This document shows positions 60,349 through 63,753 of a stretch of 64,000 nt of DNA, in pieces. The notes under the pieces were generated by a model. The model made no database searches and was not told the DNA's origin. It saw nothing but the letters and a program-made list of their open reading frames with translations. How positions within the stretch are numbered: the stretch's first letter is position 1; every line of letters begins with the position of its first letter. The DNA lies in contig OY759724.1 of the NCBI GenBank assembly GCA_963662715.1, positions 1,690,662 through 1,754,661 of the forward strand, in the 5' to 3' direction. Both the position numbers and the translations under genes were made by a program. Source of the DNA: Candidatus Omnitrophota bacterium. GTDB lineage: Bacteria > Omnitrophota > Gorgyraeia > Zapsychrales > JANLHA01.

Positions 60349-60420
60349 CAAGTCACTGCATCGGCTGCGCCTCGCCACGTTGCGGCTTCGGCAGGGGCCG
60401 ATGAGTTCCTTGCGTTGTGC
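60343..60420 (+). repeat. attC-like site 5 (R'' GCATAAC ... R' GTTGTGC)
   Basis: R'' complements attC4 R' GTTATGC. Confidence 0.6.
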
Positions 60421-60594
60421 CCGGGTAAAAAATAAGTTGTCGGGGCGCGGAATTTGAGCGGCATTAATGCGACACTGGCGGTACAGACAATATTCTGTTT
60501 GGGCGCTGACGTGCGAGCGCGGAGTCCTGACAGAATAGCGAAGCGCATGTGAGCGGTGGGAGAATCATCCCTGGCGAAGAAAAATAAAATTGGG

Positions 60595-60646
60595 GTCTTG
60601 TTGTCCCAATGTTTCAAATCCGCATGACCCCAATTTTGAGCATAAA
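60595..60646. repeat. conserved long hairpin in ORF-less cassette 6 (AAAATTGGGGTC / GACCCCAATTTT, 28-nt loop)
   Basis: Perfect 12-bp inverted repeat; homologous hairpins at 63274..63326 and 63593..63645. Confidence 0.5.
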
Positions 60647-60666
60647 AGTGGCTCAGCAAACAAATC

Positions 60667-60745
60667 GCACAACAAGGCACTACAGCGGTCGCAGCTCCGG
60701 CAGCTTCGCCGCCTGCGCACGACCGCTGAGTTTCCCACGTTATGA
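60667..60745 (+). repeat. attC-like site 6 (R'' GCACAAC ... R' GTTATGA)
   Basis: R'' complements attC5 R' GTTGTGC; near-identical to attC9. Confidence 0.6.
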
Positions 60746-60770
60746 GAAAAAAATAAAAAAGGGAGGGAGC

Positions 60771-61247
60771 ATGGGCATATCAAAATTTGAAATGTATCAT
60801 GGCGCAGTATTAACCCAAATCGTAAGAAATCCAGAAATTAGCCTCAAATTAATTGAGCGAGACAGCGCAAAACATAGCTGGGGTATGTATACTATTAGTT
60901 CGGGAAGAAAAGACTACGTAATACTCATCAAATCAACAGCAAAAATAGATAAGGCAAAGCGAACAAAAGAATATTATTCAGGATTTAATTTTGCCTTAGA
61001 GCATATTAATAAATTAAATAAACATTTAGATAAAATGCTTCTCGTATGTCTTGTGTGTCACGATCAAAACATTTGCCTTCTCACTAAAGATGACATTCAA
61101 GAATTAAAATTACTGGAAAGTAAAAAATCTTGTAGAATTGCTGTATATTGGAAATCAGGTTCGGAATTACGAGTAACATCCCCTTTCGCAGAATTAAGTC
61201 ATAAGGTTGCGAGAAATAGACTGAAAAATTACAATTGGGAACAATAA
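60771..61247 (+). CDS. cassette 7: hypothetical protein (158 aa)
   Basis: ORF-track start 60609 lies upstream of attC6; trimmed to first ATG inside cassette with RBS AAGGGAGGGAG. Confidence 0.45.
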   Translation: MGISKFEMYHGAVLTQIVRNPEISLKLIERDSAKHSWGMYTISSGRKDYVILIKSTAKIDKAKRTKEYYSGFNFALEHINKLNKHLDKMLLVCLVCHDQNICLLTKDDIQELKLLESKKSCRIAVYWKSGSELRVTSPFAELSHKVARNRLKNYNWEQ

Positions 61248-61253
61248 AAAACC

Positions 61254-61332
61254 TCATAACAACGCACTACACCTGACTGTTACCCGCCGCCTTTCAGCGT
61301 CGGCTACCAGCAGGTGAGTTTGAATGTTAGAC
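61254..61332 (+). repeat. attC-like site 7 (R'' TCATAAC ... R' GTTAGAC)
   Basis: R'' complements attC6 R' GTTATGA; CACTACACCTGACTG...CAGCAGGTGAGTTTGAATGTT. Confidence 0.55.
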
Positions 61333-61340
61333 ACATAAAA

Positions 61341-61784
61341 ATGAAATTTATTAATAAAGTAGAGGCGATAAGGTGGTGTGAAGAACACAGCATTGCCTTA
61401 AATCAAAAAGGATTGCCAGTAATAATTGAAGATAAAATAAATCAATTTTCTATTCCTCCAGATTCTGGAAAGAAAATAGCTTTAGTTAAACAGCAGTTTG
61501 AACAATTTAGGAGTGAGGAAGAAATATTGATATGGATTTTAGAATGGGGTGTCTGGCTTTCATCTGAACGTATGCATATATTTGACCGATTTCGTGAATC
61601 TTACGGAGAGAAGAGAAAATTACACGAAATAGAAGCCCATATATTTAACAAAGATGAATATGAAGATGCATTATCGTTTTTATCATTAGCAGTTCTATTT
61701 TTCTGGGATTGCTATGTTCTAAATGGCAGTGGAAATAAAATTATATTTTATTCTCACGATGAATATGGATTAACAAATGTCTAA
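61341..61784 (+). CDS. cassette 8: hypothetical protein (147 aa)
   Basis: ORF-track start 61314 (GTG) lies inside attC7; trimmed to ATG 61341 inside cassette. Confidence 0.4.
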   Translation: MKFINKVEAIRWCEEHSIALNQKGLPVIIEDKINQFSIPPDSGKKIALVKQQFEQFRSEEEILIWILEWGVWLSSERMHIFDRFRESYGEKRKLHEIEAHIFNKDEYEDALSFLSLAVLFFWDCYVLNGSGNKIIFYSHDEYGLTNV

Positions 61785-63046
61785 CAACTCATCCATGAAA
61801 ACAGTCATCTGGTCAAGCATAAAATAGAAAGGCCAAATCATCCATTCGCGCTATATTCCCCAAAAGGACTTATGCGCACAATAGCGTATTATGACAGGGC
61901 GTGCCAATCACTACAACGGCCTTAAATATGCCAGAGTTGTTAACAGCATCACCCATTTATACTGACCGATATTTATACTCACAGTTGTTTTTCAAAACAG
62001 CAAAAACAGATTTTAACAGCTTATGAGCAACAGCAACTATAGCGACACCGTAACCTTTTTTAGTTCGAATCTTCTGAAAATGAGTTTGTAAATATATATC
62101 ACGGCGCACAGCGGTTTGAGCCGCTTCGACAAAAGCAGTGCGTAAGTATTTATTGCCATCTTTAGTAATAGGGCCTGAATAATAGCTTTGACCTGATTGA
62201 TGGACACGAGGAACAATGCCGGCGTAACGGGCAAGTTTATGCGCATTCTTAAAGCGGGAGATGTCACCGATTTCAGCCAGGATGACATGAGCAAGAATAA
62301 CCCCTATACCAGGGACAGTGTAGAGTAACCGAGCCTTAGAATCGACTTTGATGTTCAGACGGAGACGAGAATCGATTTTGTAAATATGCCGGGAGAGAAT
62401 ATCGATAAAGGAGAGATAATCGGCAATCATGGAAGAATAAGGTTGCCGTAAGGATAATTGATTTAAGAAGAGTTTGCCGGAAACACCGAAGAGGTCGCTG
62501 AAAGAATGCTGAATACCCTGATAATCAAGGATAGCATGAATACGATTTTTGAGGCTAGTGCGAATGGCGATCAAACGGTGGCGATACCGCATCAAAGCAC
62601 GAGCATCACGATGAAAGCGGGAAACACGGTAAGCTTTGGGCAAGAGATCGGCTCTCAAGAGGTCAGCTAAAACAGAAGCAGAGATTTTATCGGTTTTAAT
62701 GCGTTGTTCGGCAATAGCCTTAGTTCGCGCGGTATGAGCGAGAGAAACATCTAAGCCGGCCTCTTCAAGCAAGTCACCGAGCCAAAGGTCAAAGCCAGAG
62801 GCTTCCAGTGCGACAGAAGAGTTATGAGGAAGGGCTTTAAAATAATTTTTCATAGCATCTTTCTGGAAGTGATATAATTTTGTTTGATCGATGCGGTTGC
62901 CATTCTGATCTTTAACGACAACATACGAATACTTTTTGTGTTGATCGATTCCGATGTAATACATACGTGCCTCCTTGCTGGAAGGTTGTGGTTTTTGGCT
63001 TAAAATCATTATACGCCTTCCAGAGGCACGTTTTCATACTATCACT
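61782..63046 (-). mobile_element. IS110-family insertion sequence, copy B, inserted in attC8 at same position/orientation as copy A
   Basis: 1265 bp, 1 mismatch to copy A; junctions ...YAAC|AACTCATCC and ...CATACTATCACT|nCAGCGG in both. Confidence 0.65.
61957..62964 (-). CDS. IS110-family DEDD transposase (copy B)
   Basis: Identical protein to 58788..59795. Confidence 0.75.
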   Translation of the reverse strand: MYYIGIDQHKKYSYVVVKDQNGNRIDQTKLYHFQKDAMKNYFKALPHNSSVALEASGFDLWLGDLLEEAGLDVSLAHTARTKAIAEQRIKTDKISASVLADLLRADLLPKAYRVSRFHRDARALMRYRHRLIAIRTSLKNRIHAILDYQGIQHSFSDLFGVSGKLFLNQLSLRQPYSSMIADYLSFIDILSRHIYKIDSRLRLNIKVDSKARLLYTVPGIGVILAHVILAEIGDISRFKNAHKLARYAGIVPRVHQSGQSYYSGPITKDGNKYLRTAFVEAAQTAVRRDIYLQTHFQKIRTKKGYGVAIVAVAHKLLKSVFAVLKNNCEYKYRSV

Positions 63047-63147
63047 ACAGCGGGGCGCTCCGCCACCTACGGCTGGCTACGCAGCCCCGCTGAGTTCGTT
63101 GCGTTGTACCGAATGAGAAATAAGCGGCGGGTGGCGAGAAATTTTAC

Positions 63148-63270
63148 ATGAGAGTCGAGGTGGCGCGTGCGGTTAAGAAATTCGTTTCTGGTGACGAAAA
63201 ACAAGATGAGGATCCCTGCAGAAGCCTCGAAGTAGCTGTTGCGGTGGGAGAATCATTCGAGAGAAAATGA
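63148..63270 (+). CDS. cassette 9 micro-ORF (40 aa), paralogous to 63465..63590; doubtful
   Basis: GGCGAGAAATTTTAC-ATG RBS-like context conserved with cassette 10; frame-preserving divergence MRVEVARAVKKFVSGDEKQDED... Confidence 0.25.
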   Translation: MRVEVARAVKKFVSGDEKQDEDPCRSLEVAVAVGESFERK

Positions 63271-63273
63271 ATT

Positions 63274-63326
63274 AAAATTGAGTTCATATTTTGAACATTG
63301 TTATTAGGAAGCATGACCCCAATTTT
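63274..63326. repeat. conserved long hairpin in cassette 9
   Basis: AAAATTGAGTTCAT / ATGACCCCAATTTT imperfect inverted repeat directly after micro-ORF stop. Confidence 0.45.
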
Positions 63327-63355
63327 GGGAATGTGTTTGATTCAGCAAACAAAGC

Positions 63356-63433
63356 GTACAACAAATCACTTCAGCGGTCACAGCTCCGGCAGCTTCGCCG
63401 CCTGCGCACGACCGCTGAGTTCTCACGTTGTCT
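63356..63433 (+). repeat. attC-like site 9 (R'' GTACAAC ... R' GTTGTCT)
   Basis: R'' complements attC8 R' GTTGTAC. Confidence 0.6.
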
Positions 63434-63464
63434 GGCTGGAGAGATTGGTGGCGGGAAATTTTAC

Positions 63465-63590
63465 ATGAGAAGCGGAGTGGCGTTTGCGTTTAAGAAATTT
63501 GTTGTTGGTGACGAAATACAAGATGAGGATTCCAGTCAGAAATTCGAAGTGTCGTTGGAGGCGGGTGGCATCACAAAAGAGAAGAGATAA
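63465..63590 (+). CDS. cassette 10 micro-ORF (41 aa), paralogous to 63148..63270; doubtful
   Basis: MRSGVAFAFKKFVVGDEIQDED...; same reading frame as 99-aa track ORF that reads through attC9. Confidence 0.25.
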   Translation: MRSGVAFAFKKFVVGDEIQDEDSSQKFEVSLEAGGITKEKR

Positions 63591-63592
63591 AT

Positions 63593-63645
63593 AAAATTGG
63601 GTTCATGTTTTGAACATTGTTATTAGGACGCATGATCCCAATTTT
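63593..63645. repeat. conserved long hairpin in cassette 10
   Basis: AAAATTGGGTTCATG / CATGATCCCAATTTT; loop ttttgaacattgttattagga conserved with cassette 9. Confidence 0.45.
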
Positions 63646-63674
63646 GAGAATAGATTCGGTTCAGCAAACAGTTC

Positions 63675-63753
63675 AGACAACAAGTCACTACAGCGAGGGC
63701 GCTCGGCCACCGTTGGCAGGCCTCGCACTCCCGCTGAGTTCCTTGCGTTAGAT
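63675..63753 (+). repeat. attC-like site 10 (R'' AGACAAC ... R' GTTAGAT)
   Basis: R'' complements attC9 R' GTTGTCT. Confidence 0.6.

Follow-up and report, generated by a model that had tools for sequence, protein, structure and literature searches.

Gene-less integron cassettes sharing a conserved palindrome in an attC array of a Candidatus Omnitrophota bacterium

The question raised by this locus is what function, if any, is carried by short integron cassettes that contain no long open reading frame (ORF). The DNA analysed (the window) was a 64,000 nucleotide stretch of contig OY759724.1 from a Candidatus Omnitrophota bacterium, in which the + strand from ~55076 to the end of the window is an integron cassette array made up of short, mostly AT-rich ORFs, each followed by a 68-73 nt imperfect palindrome (RYYYAAC...GTTRRRY). 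Three units of this array had been described in a sequence-only reading as ORF-less or micro-ORF cassettes with a shared long hairpin, and had been proposed to be either a small-protein plus structured-RNA module, for example a toxin-antitoxin or small RNA (sRNA) cassette, or a selfish non-coding cassette. Analysis of these units and their relatives revealed them to be a family of gene-less (ORF-less) integron gene cassettes. This family is mobile and multi-copy across two genomes, and the hairpin is the most strongly constrained part of the cassette. The single most likely function, which we infer only tentatively, would be that of a transcription terminator or insulator.

The three cassettes were delimited as follows.

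60415-60739, + strand: cassette 6, designated the 'cas6 type', running from the crossover after G60414 to G60739 at the R' GTT sites.
63104-63427, + strand: cassette 9, which starts directly after an attC interrupted by an insertion sequence (IS).
63428-63746, + strand: cassette 10 (nhmmer E = 9.8e-55).

The three cassettes read earlier from the sequence were real, but the ends given for them had run 6-7 nt past the G|TT crossovers into the next cassette. All ends lie at G|TT crossovers: the cassettes start with TT after ...GCG or ...ACG and end in ...CACG|TT or ...GCG|TT, and each has its own single attC at the 3' end. Cassettes 6, 9 and 10 aligned over their full length with a mean column identity of 80%. 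Pairwise global alignment of the 5' bodies gave scores of 19-146, compared to 5-6 +/- 3 for shuffled sequences; the bodies of cassette 9 and the cas6 type, for example, shared 66% identity (score 48 against a null of 5.3 +/- 3.4). As the body scores were far above those of the shuffles, the three cassettes are homologous and are not chance repeats. The part specific to the family is a G-rich body of ~170 nt. Cassette bodies had 44-53% G+C compared to 31-37% in the neighbouring coding cassettes, and the sense strand was purine- and G-rich, like the transcribed sense strands of the neighbours. An origin of the body as degenerate copies of attC was considered and rejected, as the similarity was not above that of shuffled controls. 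The longest sense ORFs in the three cassettes were 32-51 codons (gene-less cassettes, as defined by Boucher 2006 and Blanco 2024, being those with no ORF above 150-210 bp and without homologues at the protein level), with the caveat that a 146-codon ORF on the minus strand (60240-60680) crosses the boundary of cassette 6.

Each cassette ends in an attC site that is preceded by a second, R''-like box.

60667-60739, + strand: attC of cassette 6; R'' GCACAAC (60667-60673) matches the cassette start TTGTGC, and the bottom strand forms a bulged hairpin.
60653-60673, + strand: R''-like duplicate TCAGCAAACAAATC of cassette 6 and, after it, the true R''; CAGCAAACAAATCGCAC is like the ordinary R''-L'' start CAGCTAACAAGTCACT.
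63342-63427, + strand: R''-like box (63342-63351) and attC of cassette 9; R'' GTACAAC at 63356-63362, ending at G63427.
63661-63746, + strand: R''-like box (63661-63670) and attC of cassette 10; R'' AGACAAC at 63675-63681, ending at G63746.

The R'' boxes ([G/A][C/T/G]ACAAC) were complementary to the start of their own cassette, which is TTGTGC, TTGTAC and TTGTCT in cassettes 6, 9 and 10 respectively. The sites showed the R''-L''...L'-R' dyad symmetry and the bulged bottom-strand fold (z = -3.2) by which an attC of an integron cassette is recognised. Exactly three occurrences of TCAGCAAACA were found, one in each cassette. Because TCAGCAAACA(AATCGCAC) was closely similar to the R''-L'' start CAGCTAACAAGTCACT of neighbouring attC sites and lies 13 nt 5' of the true R'', it was identified as a tandemly duplicated R''-like box. 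A conserved block before the attC had also been reported earlier; it is present, but its TTCAGCAAACA is not a separate box and belongs to the attC subtype. The near-identity of the attC sites of cassettes 6 and 9, previously put at ~95%, was 88% over the whole site and 90-100% in the central part.

Relatives of the cassettes were sought with a profile made by translating the conserved 90 nt from the hairpin loop to the attC in four open frames and concatenating them; this design was chosen because spurious ORF calls made over homologous DNA could then be caught in a protein collection. The profile matched a predicted protein, P0011, and this led to a second genome, L026, where a 584-kb ENA contig (ERZ21869602) carries an attC array of the same type on its minus strand. 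A search of L026 by nhmmer with the cassette alignment revealed four full copies and one hairpin-only copy. Three of these (L26a, L26c and L26d) were of the cas6 type with 90-94% identity to cassette 6 of the window, and L26b represented a fourth subtype. As a 42-aa variant of the cassette 10 micro-ORF (P0008) was found elsewhere in the source genome, on the same 3.36-Mb contig, that genome has at least 4 family copies, the three of the window and P0008, and L026 likewise has at least 4. Homologous cassettes elsewhere, the absence of which had been named as a sign against the proposal, were thus found, and the claim of a distinct repeated unit was confirmed in that these are complete cassettes with their own attC and with relatives in L026. 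The two arrays otherwise had only attC sites and 65%-identical IS copies in common, so that the gene-less cassette is the one element that was exchanged or retained between them; the TPR gene flanking the L026 array was not orthologous to that of the window. Changes in the 146-codon minus-strand ORF were mostly non-synonymous, with 17 amino acid differences over the ~55 residues that it shares with P0011 (our own count), and the 25 substitutions among cas6-type copies were distributed 4/11/10 by phase (again our own count), which gave no codon periodicity for this ORF.

Similarity among the copies was mosaic. The body of cassette 6 was like those of L26a and L26d and its spacer like that of L26c, while cassettes 9 and 10 shared body and hairpin, not attC, and cassettes 6 and 9 shared attC; the copies therefore recombine. 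The 3' module also occurs on coding cassettes, as seen in two L026 cassettes, the first of which is listed here.

15962-16360 of the L026 contig, - strand: first cassette of the L026 array, encoding an 80-aa zinc-ribbon protein with four CxxC motifs.

Some 20 nt after the zinc-ribbon ORF there was a degenerate hairpin followed by the spacer and double box, and the double box without a hairpin ended another protein-coding cassette in L026. This suggests that 3' modules have been swapped between cassettes by recombination. Beyond L026, scans for the exact pattern CCCAATTTTG-N10-18-TCAGCAAACA gave chance matches alone in GTDB species genomes and JGI metagenomes, none of them with CATGAY before or an ACAACAA R'' box after the match, and no similarity to the cassettes was found in viral contigs or PLSDB plasmids.

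The hairpin spans 52-53 nt in each cassette, with arms of 12-15 bp and a loop of 23-25 nt, and lies ~30 nt 5' of the attC.

60586-60637, no strand assigned: hairpin of cassette 6, with arms AAAATTGGGGTC(TTG) and (CAT)GACCCCAATTTT and a 23-nt loop containing ATGTTTCAAAT.
63274-63326, no strand assigned: hairpin of cassette 9, with 5' arm AAAATTGAGTTCATA; three mismatches on the + strand, two G-U on the - strand.
63593-63645, no strand assigned: hairpin of cassette 10, with 14/15 pairs.

That the hairpin is conserved, as had been noted earlier, was borne out by the pattern AAAATTGRG-N20-50-CCCAATTTT, which occurred once per cassette and nowhere else in the 64 kb; none was expected by chance (100 shuffles). 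The cas6 hairpin had a folding energy of -23 kcal/mol on either strand (z about -3). Across the four cas6-type copies, the A-tract, 5' arm and loop (55 columns together) contained no variable column, compared to 25 of 161 body columns; two further variable columns were in the attC. Since ~8.5 changes would be expected in the 55 columns at the body rate and none was seen, this depletion is real. The 3' half of the loop (ATGTTTCAAAT) was also conserved in sequence. A genome-wide repetitive extragenic palindromic (REP) sequence or a miniature inverted-repeat transposable element (MITE) was rejected as an identity for the hairpin, the arms being present in these cassettes alone, and a loop motif shared with the leader region of the array was rejected for lack of enrichment.

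The stem is built of 12-15 pairs around a GGGGTC core and is flanked by an A-rich tract on one side and a T-run on the other. On the - strand a U-rich tail of 9-13 nt followed the stem in all eight copies, whereas on the + strand there was just UUUU. The stop codons of the two micro-ORFs lie directly 5' of the hairpin, at a distance of 3-8 nt. Over 15 pairs in seven sequences, the share of base-paired cells was 85.6% for the + strand and 88.6% for the - strand; single-sided changes led to G-U pairs in five cells for the latter and in one for the former. This asymmetry hints that the - strand is the functional one; settling the strand by comparing G-U with A-C mismatches (5 cells to 1 for the - strand) was rejected as a test, the events being few and non-independent. 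On bottom-strand DNA, the attC and the palindrome folded as two adjacent hairpins (z = -3.2).

Micro-ORFs were present in cassettes 9 and 10 and there was none in cassette 6, as had been described.

63148-63270, + strand: micro-ORF of cassette 9, 40 codons, an open frame with no coding signal.
63465-63590, + strand: micro-ORF of cassette 10, 41 codons, an open frame with no coding signal.

The ribosome binding site-like sequence reported upstream of them was found, in that the 15-mer GGCGRGAAATTTTAC precedes both ORFs, but it is a poor Shine-Dalgarno sequence and not of the GGAGG type that precedes the real cassette genes. The divergence of the two ORFs, previously given as ~45%, was measured as 35% when gaps are excluded; it was 17% over the first 22 codons and 57% beyond them. 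Mismatches between them at codon positions 1/2/3 numbered 14/13/15, and 4/5/2 within the first 22 codons, which is the opposite of purifying selection on a protein; 20 of the 24 changed codons were non-synonymous and 4 synonymous. The alignment of cassettes 9 and 10 requires a 1-nt indel within the C-terminal part, and the indels between subtypes (lengths 1, 1, 1, 5, 2...) were mostly not multiples of three. The micro-ORF was absent from 5/7 full copies including the commonest subtype, there being none in the cas6-type copies and a truncated one in L26b.

A search of ~15 billion proteins revealed no homologues of the micro-ORFs outside their own genome, and a profile of the two peptides run against 5.8 billion clusters recovered the third copy from the same genome, P0008, alone. 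An exhaustive HMMER scan of 1.84 billion representatives gave two extra matches, to proteins of 888 aa and 1506 aa; these aligned in 4 and 9 short stretches respectively and are probably due to low complexity. The peptide had no match in Pfam or PADLOC. It is acidic and hydrophilic (MRVEVARAVKKFVSGDEKQDED...), and a type I toxin-antitoxin system was rejected on this ground, the toxins of such systems being small hydrophobic membrane peptides with an overlapping antisense RNA, together with the lack of a Pfam or PADLOC match. The reading as a small protein or toxin-antitoxin pair was thus unsupported: there was no codon bias, there were no homologues and the ORF was absent from most copies. The evidence says that the micro-ORF is probably an unselected open frame and not a gene.

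Two further ORFs were observed across attC sites. A 212-codon ORF (60609-61247) has its ATG in the hairpin loop of cassette 6 and runs through the attC, in frame, into the real ORF of cassette 7, and the source annotation contains a 99-aa product (P0003) that spans the attC of cassette 9 and the micro-ORF of cassette 10. Both are artefacts of ORF calling across attC sites.

The structured-RNA part of the proposal was not supported either: there were no compensatory changes, the bodies of three of the four subtypes were not folded beyond their shuffles and there was no match in Rfam. The cas6 body had z = -2.2; the other three subtypes had z = -0.2, +0.2 and -0.5. Helices proposed in the body by RNAalifold rest on an unreliable alignment. 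With Rfam 15 at gathering scores there were 0 matches in the whole window (the integron-associated content of Rfam being unverified), and at E <= 10 the three cassettes gave sub-threshold chance matches only. The folding and covariation check that had been recommended was run on seven sequences and revealed no covariation in the hairpin: at this low power, 0/15 pairs were altered on both sides on either strand. A G-rich block in the body was also complementary to the end of the attC.

60556-60566, + strand: G-rich block GTGGGAGAATC, which every subtype has as CGGYGGGAG; complementary to 60728-60738, the 3' end of the attC.

The attC 3' end pairing with GTGGGAGAATC is GAGTTTCCCAC, and pair 145-329 was T-A in five sequences and C-G in two, those with an attC ending TTCCTTGCG. 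The complementarity could be due to chance between G-rich and pyrimidine-rich segments, and a helix formed at long range by GGYGGGAG and the end of the attC was set aside as just one pair covaries. A second small hairpin in the spacer was likewise set aside, its registers being inconsistent. The non-coding cassette that had been offered as the alternative fits every test made.

As a terminator or insulator, the hairpin would fold in transcripts and so punctuate transcription of the array. It would act better on antisense (- strand) transcripts, in which the 9-13 nt U-rich tail comes after the stem, than on sense transcripts. The benefit that maintains the cassette would be the shielding of its neighbours from read-through or antisense interference, and the ~170-nt G-rich body, which evolves fast, may be mostly filler. 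The geometry is like that of bidirectional intrinsic terminators, namely a G+C-cored stem (GGGGTC) with a 5' A-tract and a 3' T-tract placed after stop codons on the + strand, and the host has intrinsic terminators with stems extended by A/T-tracts, for example at 44622-44658.

Several points weigh against this function. The conserved loop of 23-25 nt is longer than the 3-8 nt of bidirectional intrinsic terminators and of the host's consensus terminators, a consensus terminator scan did not call the cassette hairpin, and the sense-strand U-tract has just four residues. The conserved 3' half of the loop (ATGTTTCAAAT) would be superfluous in a plain terminator, and no compensatory substitution favours an RNA helix over a DNA palindrome. 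A terminator also does not explain the ~66% homology of the body over 170 nt. In Vibrio, the supported function of most gene-less cassettes is that of a promoter and not termination (PMC11014356). The identity of the family, in turn, was judged from two genomes with about five distinct sequence variants, and the micro-ORF may be translated into an unconserved peptide.

A promoter, sense or antisense, that drives or silences neighbouring cassettes is an unlikely but serious alternative, and the one best backed by experiments on other integrons: of 30 gene-less cassettes of Vibrio, most were active as sense promoters (PMC11014356), ORF-less cassettes of Treponema are a further case (PMC6557892), and transcription of neighbouring cassettes is the best-documented role of the gene-less class (PMC11014356, PMC6557892). 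In silico promoter prediction is unreliable either way for gene-less cassettes (PMC11014356). Within the present family, the conserved 5' arm contains a -10-like TAAAAT, cassette 10 has one consensus match (63570-63597), and the spacer after the hairpin contains TATAAT in L26a and L26d and TATATT in the zinc-ribbon copy. However, these spacer hexamers vary among copies and have no -35 partner, and although the host appears to use sigma-70-type promoters, consensus matches being enriched in its flanking region (33 versus 18.9 +/- 3.3 in shuffles), the three cassettes contained just one match, weak and non-conserved. The bodies, at 44-53% GC, are unlike the AT-rich Vibrio cassettes for which spurious initiation is suspected, and a stable hairpin at or after the putative start would hamper transcripts. 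A selfish cassette, in which the palindrome and the doubled R'' would act on single-stranded or extruded DNA beside the attC to aid attC folding, integrase recruitment or survival of the excised circle, so that it over-replicates within arrays and spreads from genome to genome without benefit to the host, is also improbable but deserves to be weighed; the same alternative was proposed by Boucher et al. for non-coding families of Vibrio (PMC1382264). It is consistent with the multiple copies in both arrays of the sole cassette that they share, at 90-94% identity, with the recombination among copies indicated by their mosaic similarity, with constraint on the palindrome and attC, not the body, with the lack of RNA-type covariation in the palindrome, with the two adjacent hairpins on bottom-strand DNA (z = -3.2), and with the hairpin and doubled box found on coding cassettes. 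Yet the hairpin of the zinc-ribbon cassette is degenerate and so unneeded for the maintenance of that cassette, high copy number could arise by ordinary cassette duplication, and no integrase gene was detected in the window or L026 with an IntI1 query. Moreover, no integron mechanism is known to involve an accessory hairpin outside attC. More specifically, the palindrome and doubled R'' might be a cis-acting attC accessory on single-stranded or extruded DNA, with a role in folding, integrase loading or second-strand priming, which we consider quite doubtful. If it were true, the cassette would have a transmission advantage as a 'drive' element that parasitises the integron, with a 3' module that can be grafted onto coding cassettes.

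The two remaining alternatives, an sRNA gene and a small protein, were weaker than the promoter and the selfish cassette. The cassette could specify a sense sRNA of ~220 nt that ends at the hairpin, or a shorter antisense RNA that covers the attC and likewise ends at the hairpin, and there is precedent for a cassette-borne sRNA (PMC8876359). The position of the hairpin, which closes the body on its 3' side and has U residues after it, the purine- and G-rich sense strand, which resembles the transcribed strands of neighbouring cassettes, and the fold of the cas6 body (z = -2.2) agree with this, but three of the four subtypes folded like shuffles, bodies of different subtypes shared only ~66% identity, had many indels and formed no consistent helices, the consensus scan gave no conserved promoter, and Rfam gave no match at gathering score (window) or at E <= 10 (three cassettes); an sRNA gene is accordingly distinctly unlikely. 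Lower still stands the possibility that the ORF of 40-42 codons in cassette 9, cassette 10 and P0008 is translated as a small protein or leader peptide, with the terminating ribosome melting the hairpin and with the cas6 type pseudogenised. In its favour, three copies keep the frame open, one of them with an in-frame 3-nt insertion relative to P0002, cassettes 9 and 10 agree in the ATG and the 15 nt upstream, their stop codons lie next to the hairpin, and some Vibrio gene-less cassettes are degenerated genes (PMC11014356). Set against these are the lack of a third-position excess, the 20/24 changed codons that are non-synonymous, the 1-nt indel that shifts the C-terminal part, the lack of a strong Shine-Dalgarno sequence, of homologues beyond the same genome and of a family match, and the lack of the ORF in the commonest and most shared subtype, which together make translation very improbable.

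Non-coding cassettes of Vibrio have been described as paralogous within arrays and >80% identical between species with no codon-like substitution, and were proposed to be selfish or regulatory (Boucher et al. 2006; PMC1382264). The present cassettes are like these paralogous families in being short, in having no credible ORF, their own attC and several copies per array, in having homologues of >80-90% nucleotide identity in the arrays of other genomes where most other cassettes are unshared, and in showing no codon pattern and no homologues outside a narrow group. They differ in their host, which is no Vibrio, in a body that has more GC than the neighbouring cassettes and is not AT-rich, and in the presence of a strongly conserved long-loop palindrome and a doubled R'' box. 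The promoter-bearing cassettes of Vibrionaceae (Blanco et al. 2024; PMC11014356) and Treponema (Tansirichaiya et al. 2019; PMC6557892) are likewise gene-less and found in long arrays. Those cassettes are 491-666 bp, compared to ~325 bp here, and the present family has a conserved stem-loop and no conserved promoter by consensus scan. An integron cassette of Xanthomonas is reported to encode a trans-acting sRNA, sRNA-Xcc1 (Chen et al. 2011, cited in PMC8876359), which is similarly cassette-borne and ORF-less, present in several copies and transferred between replicons. The present cassettes had no match in Rfam, in which the presence of sRNA-Xcc1 is itself unverified. Overall, the family has the defining features of the gene-less paralogous cassette class with no detectable sequence relation to the described families. 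What sets it apart is its host lineage, together with a palindrome with a long loop, a doubled R'' box and a GC-rich body.

In some chromosomal integrons, 6-49% of the array consists of gene-less cassettes, and tests of what they do have only just begun. With the family described here, they are now also known from a lineage that is uncultured and outside the Proteobacteria, and from an attC array with no integrase beside it. At ~325 bp, with a single palindrome under sharp conservation and with variants occurring naturally in two genomes, the cassette is an unusually simple test object, suited to asking whether transcription is punctuated or started, or whether the cassette is merely self-propagating. 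Small ORFs called in cassette arrays also require checks at the codon level, as three unselected frames and one attC-crossing ORF were annotated here.

The gene 5' of the first cassette of the window encodes a PMT_2/TPR protein and is preceded by AddA/AddB-like genes, which are also annotated in a related genome, L027. The complete integron arrangement, with intI and attI adjoining the first cassette, was not found, the upstream gene being that for PMT_2/TPR, and tblastn with IntI1 gave no match anywhere in the window or L026, which is a weak negative. Either both arrays are attC clusters with no intI beside them, as they appear to be, or the integrase gene may lie at another place in the 3.36-Mb genome. 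Among named genomes, a Candidatus Omnitrophica metagenome-assembled genome had the closest relative of the window's TPR gene (39% identity). Orthologues of this gene were used to look for related arrays, and none was found at the locus in L027 and L028, the closest relatives fetched by the TPR gene, where ordinary genes follow TPR. As these genomes keep the AddA-AddB-TPR synteny without an array, the array of the window is an insertion at this spot.

Other features of the two arrays are as follows.

~58610-59870 and ~61780-63040, - strand: IS110-family insertions, with transposase ORFs at 58788-59840 and 61957-63009.
56024-57046 and 57043-57984: genes of cassette 3, encoding an SPFH/Band 7 protein and a 313-aa ORF respectively.
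13925-14176 of the L026 contig, + strand: PhdYeFM antitoxin gene, on the opposite strand to the cassettes.
14838-15764 of the L026 contig, - strand: cassette encoding a PIN_12 protein.
54513-54548: 9-nt tandem repeat TAAGGGTAT of the leader.
54586-54626 and 54903-54943: two 41-nt direct repeats of the leader, each followed by AAATGCGACTT.
near 54822-54850: promoter-like TTGACA-17-TAATAA, facing the array.

The two IS110-family insertions (DEDD_Tnp_IS110 and Transposase_20) were 98.9% identical and each splits an attC, as is the habit of IS1111-type elements, which target attC. Three of the four IS-interrupted attC sites in the window and L026 were directly 5' of a cassette with the module (cassette 9, L26c and L26d), and in L026 the IS and the next module cassette form a 1.76-kb block of which there are two copies with 96.4% identity. 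Cassette 3 (55985-58075) was atypical, being ~2.1 kb long with 58% G+C and two genes, and its attC (~58005-58075) was of a different sequence type; it is probably from another integron lineage. PhdYeFM and PIN_12 are typical of the toxin-antitoxin genes that stabilise chromosomal arrays. Several repeats lie in the leader (54513-55075), which separates the first cassette from the TPR gene, and the L026 leader has 4-5 analogous 'GGTATACCG...AAGGGCAAAAGGAAC' repeats; in both arrays these could be attI-like or regulatory sites.

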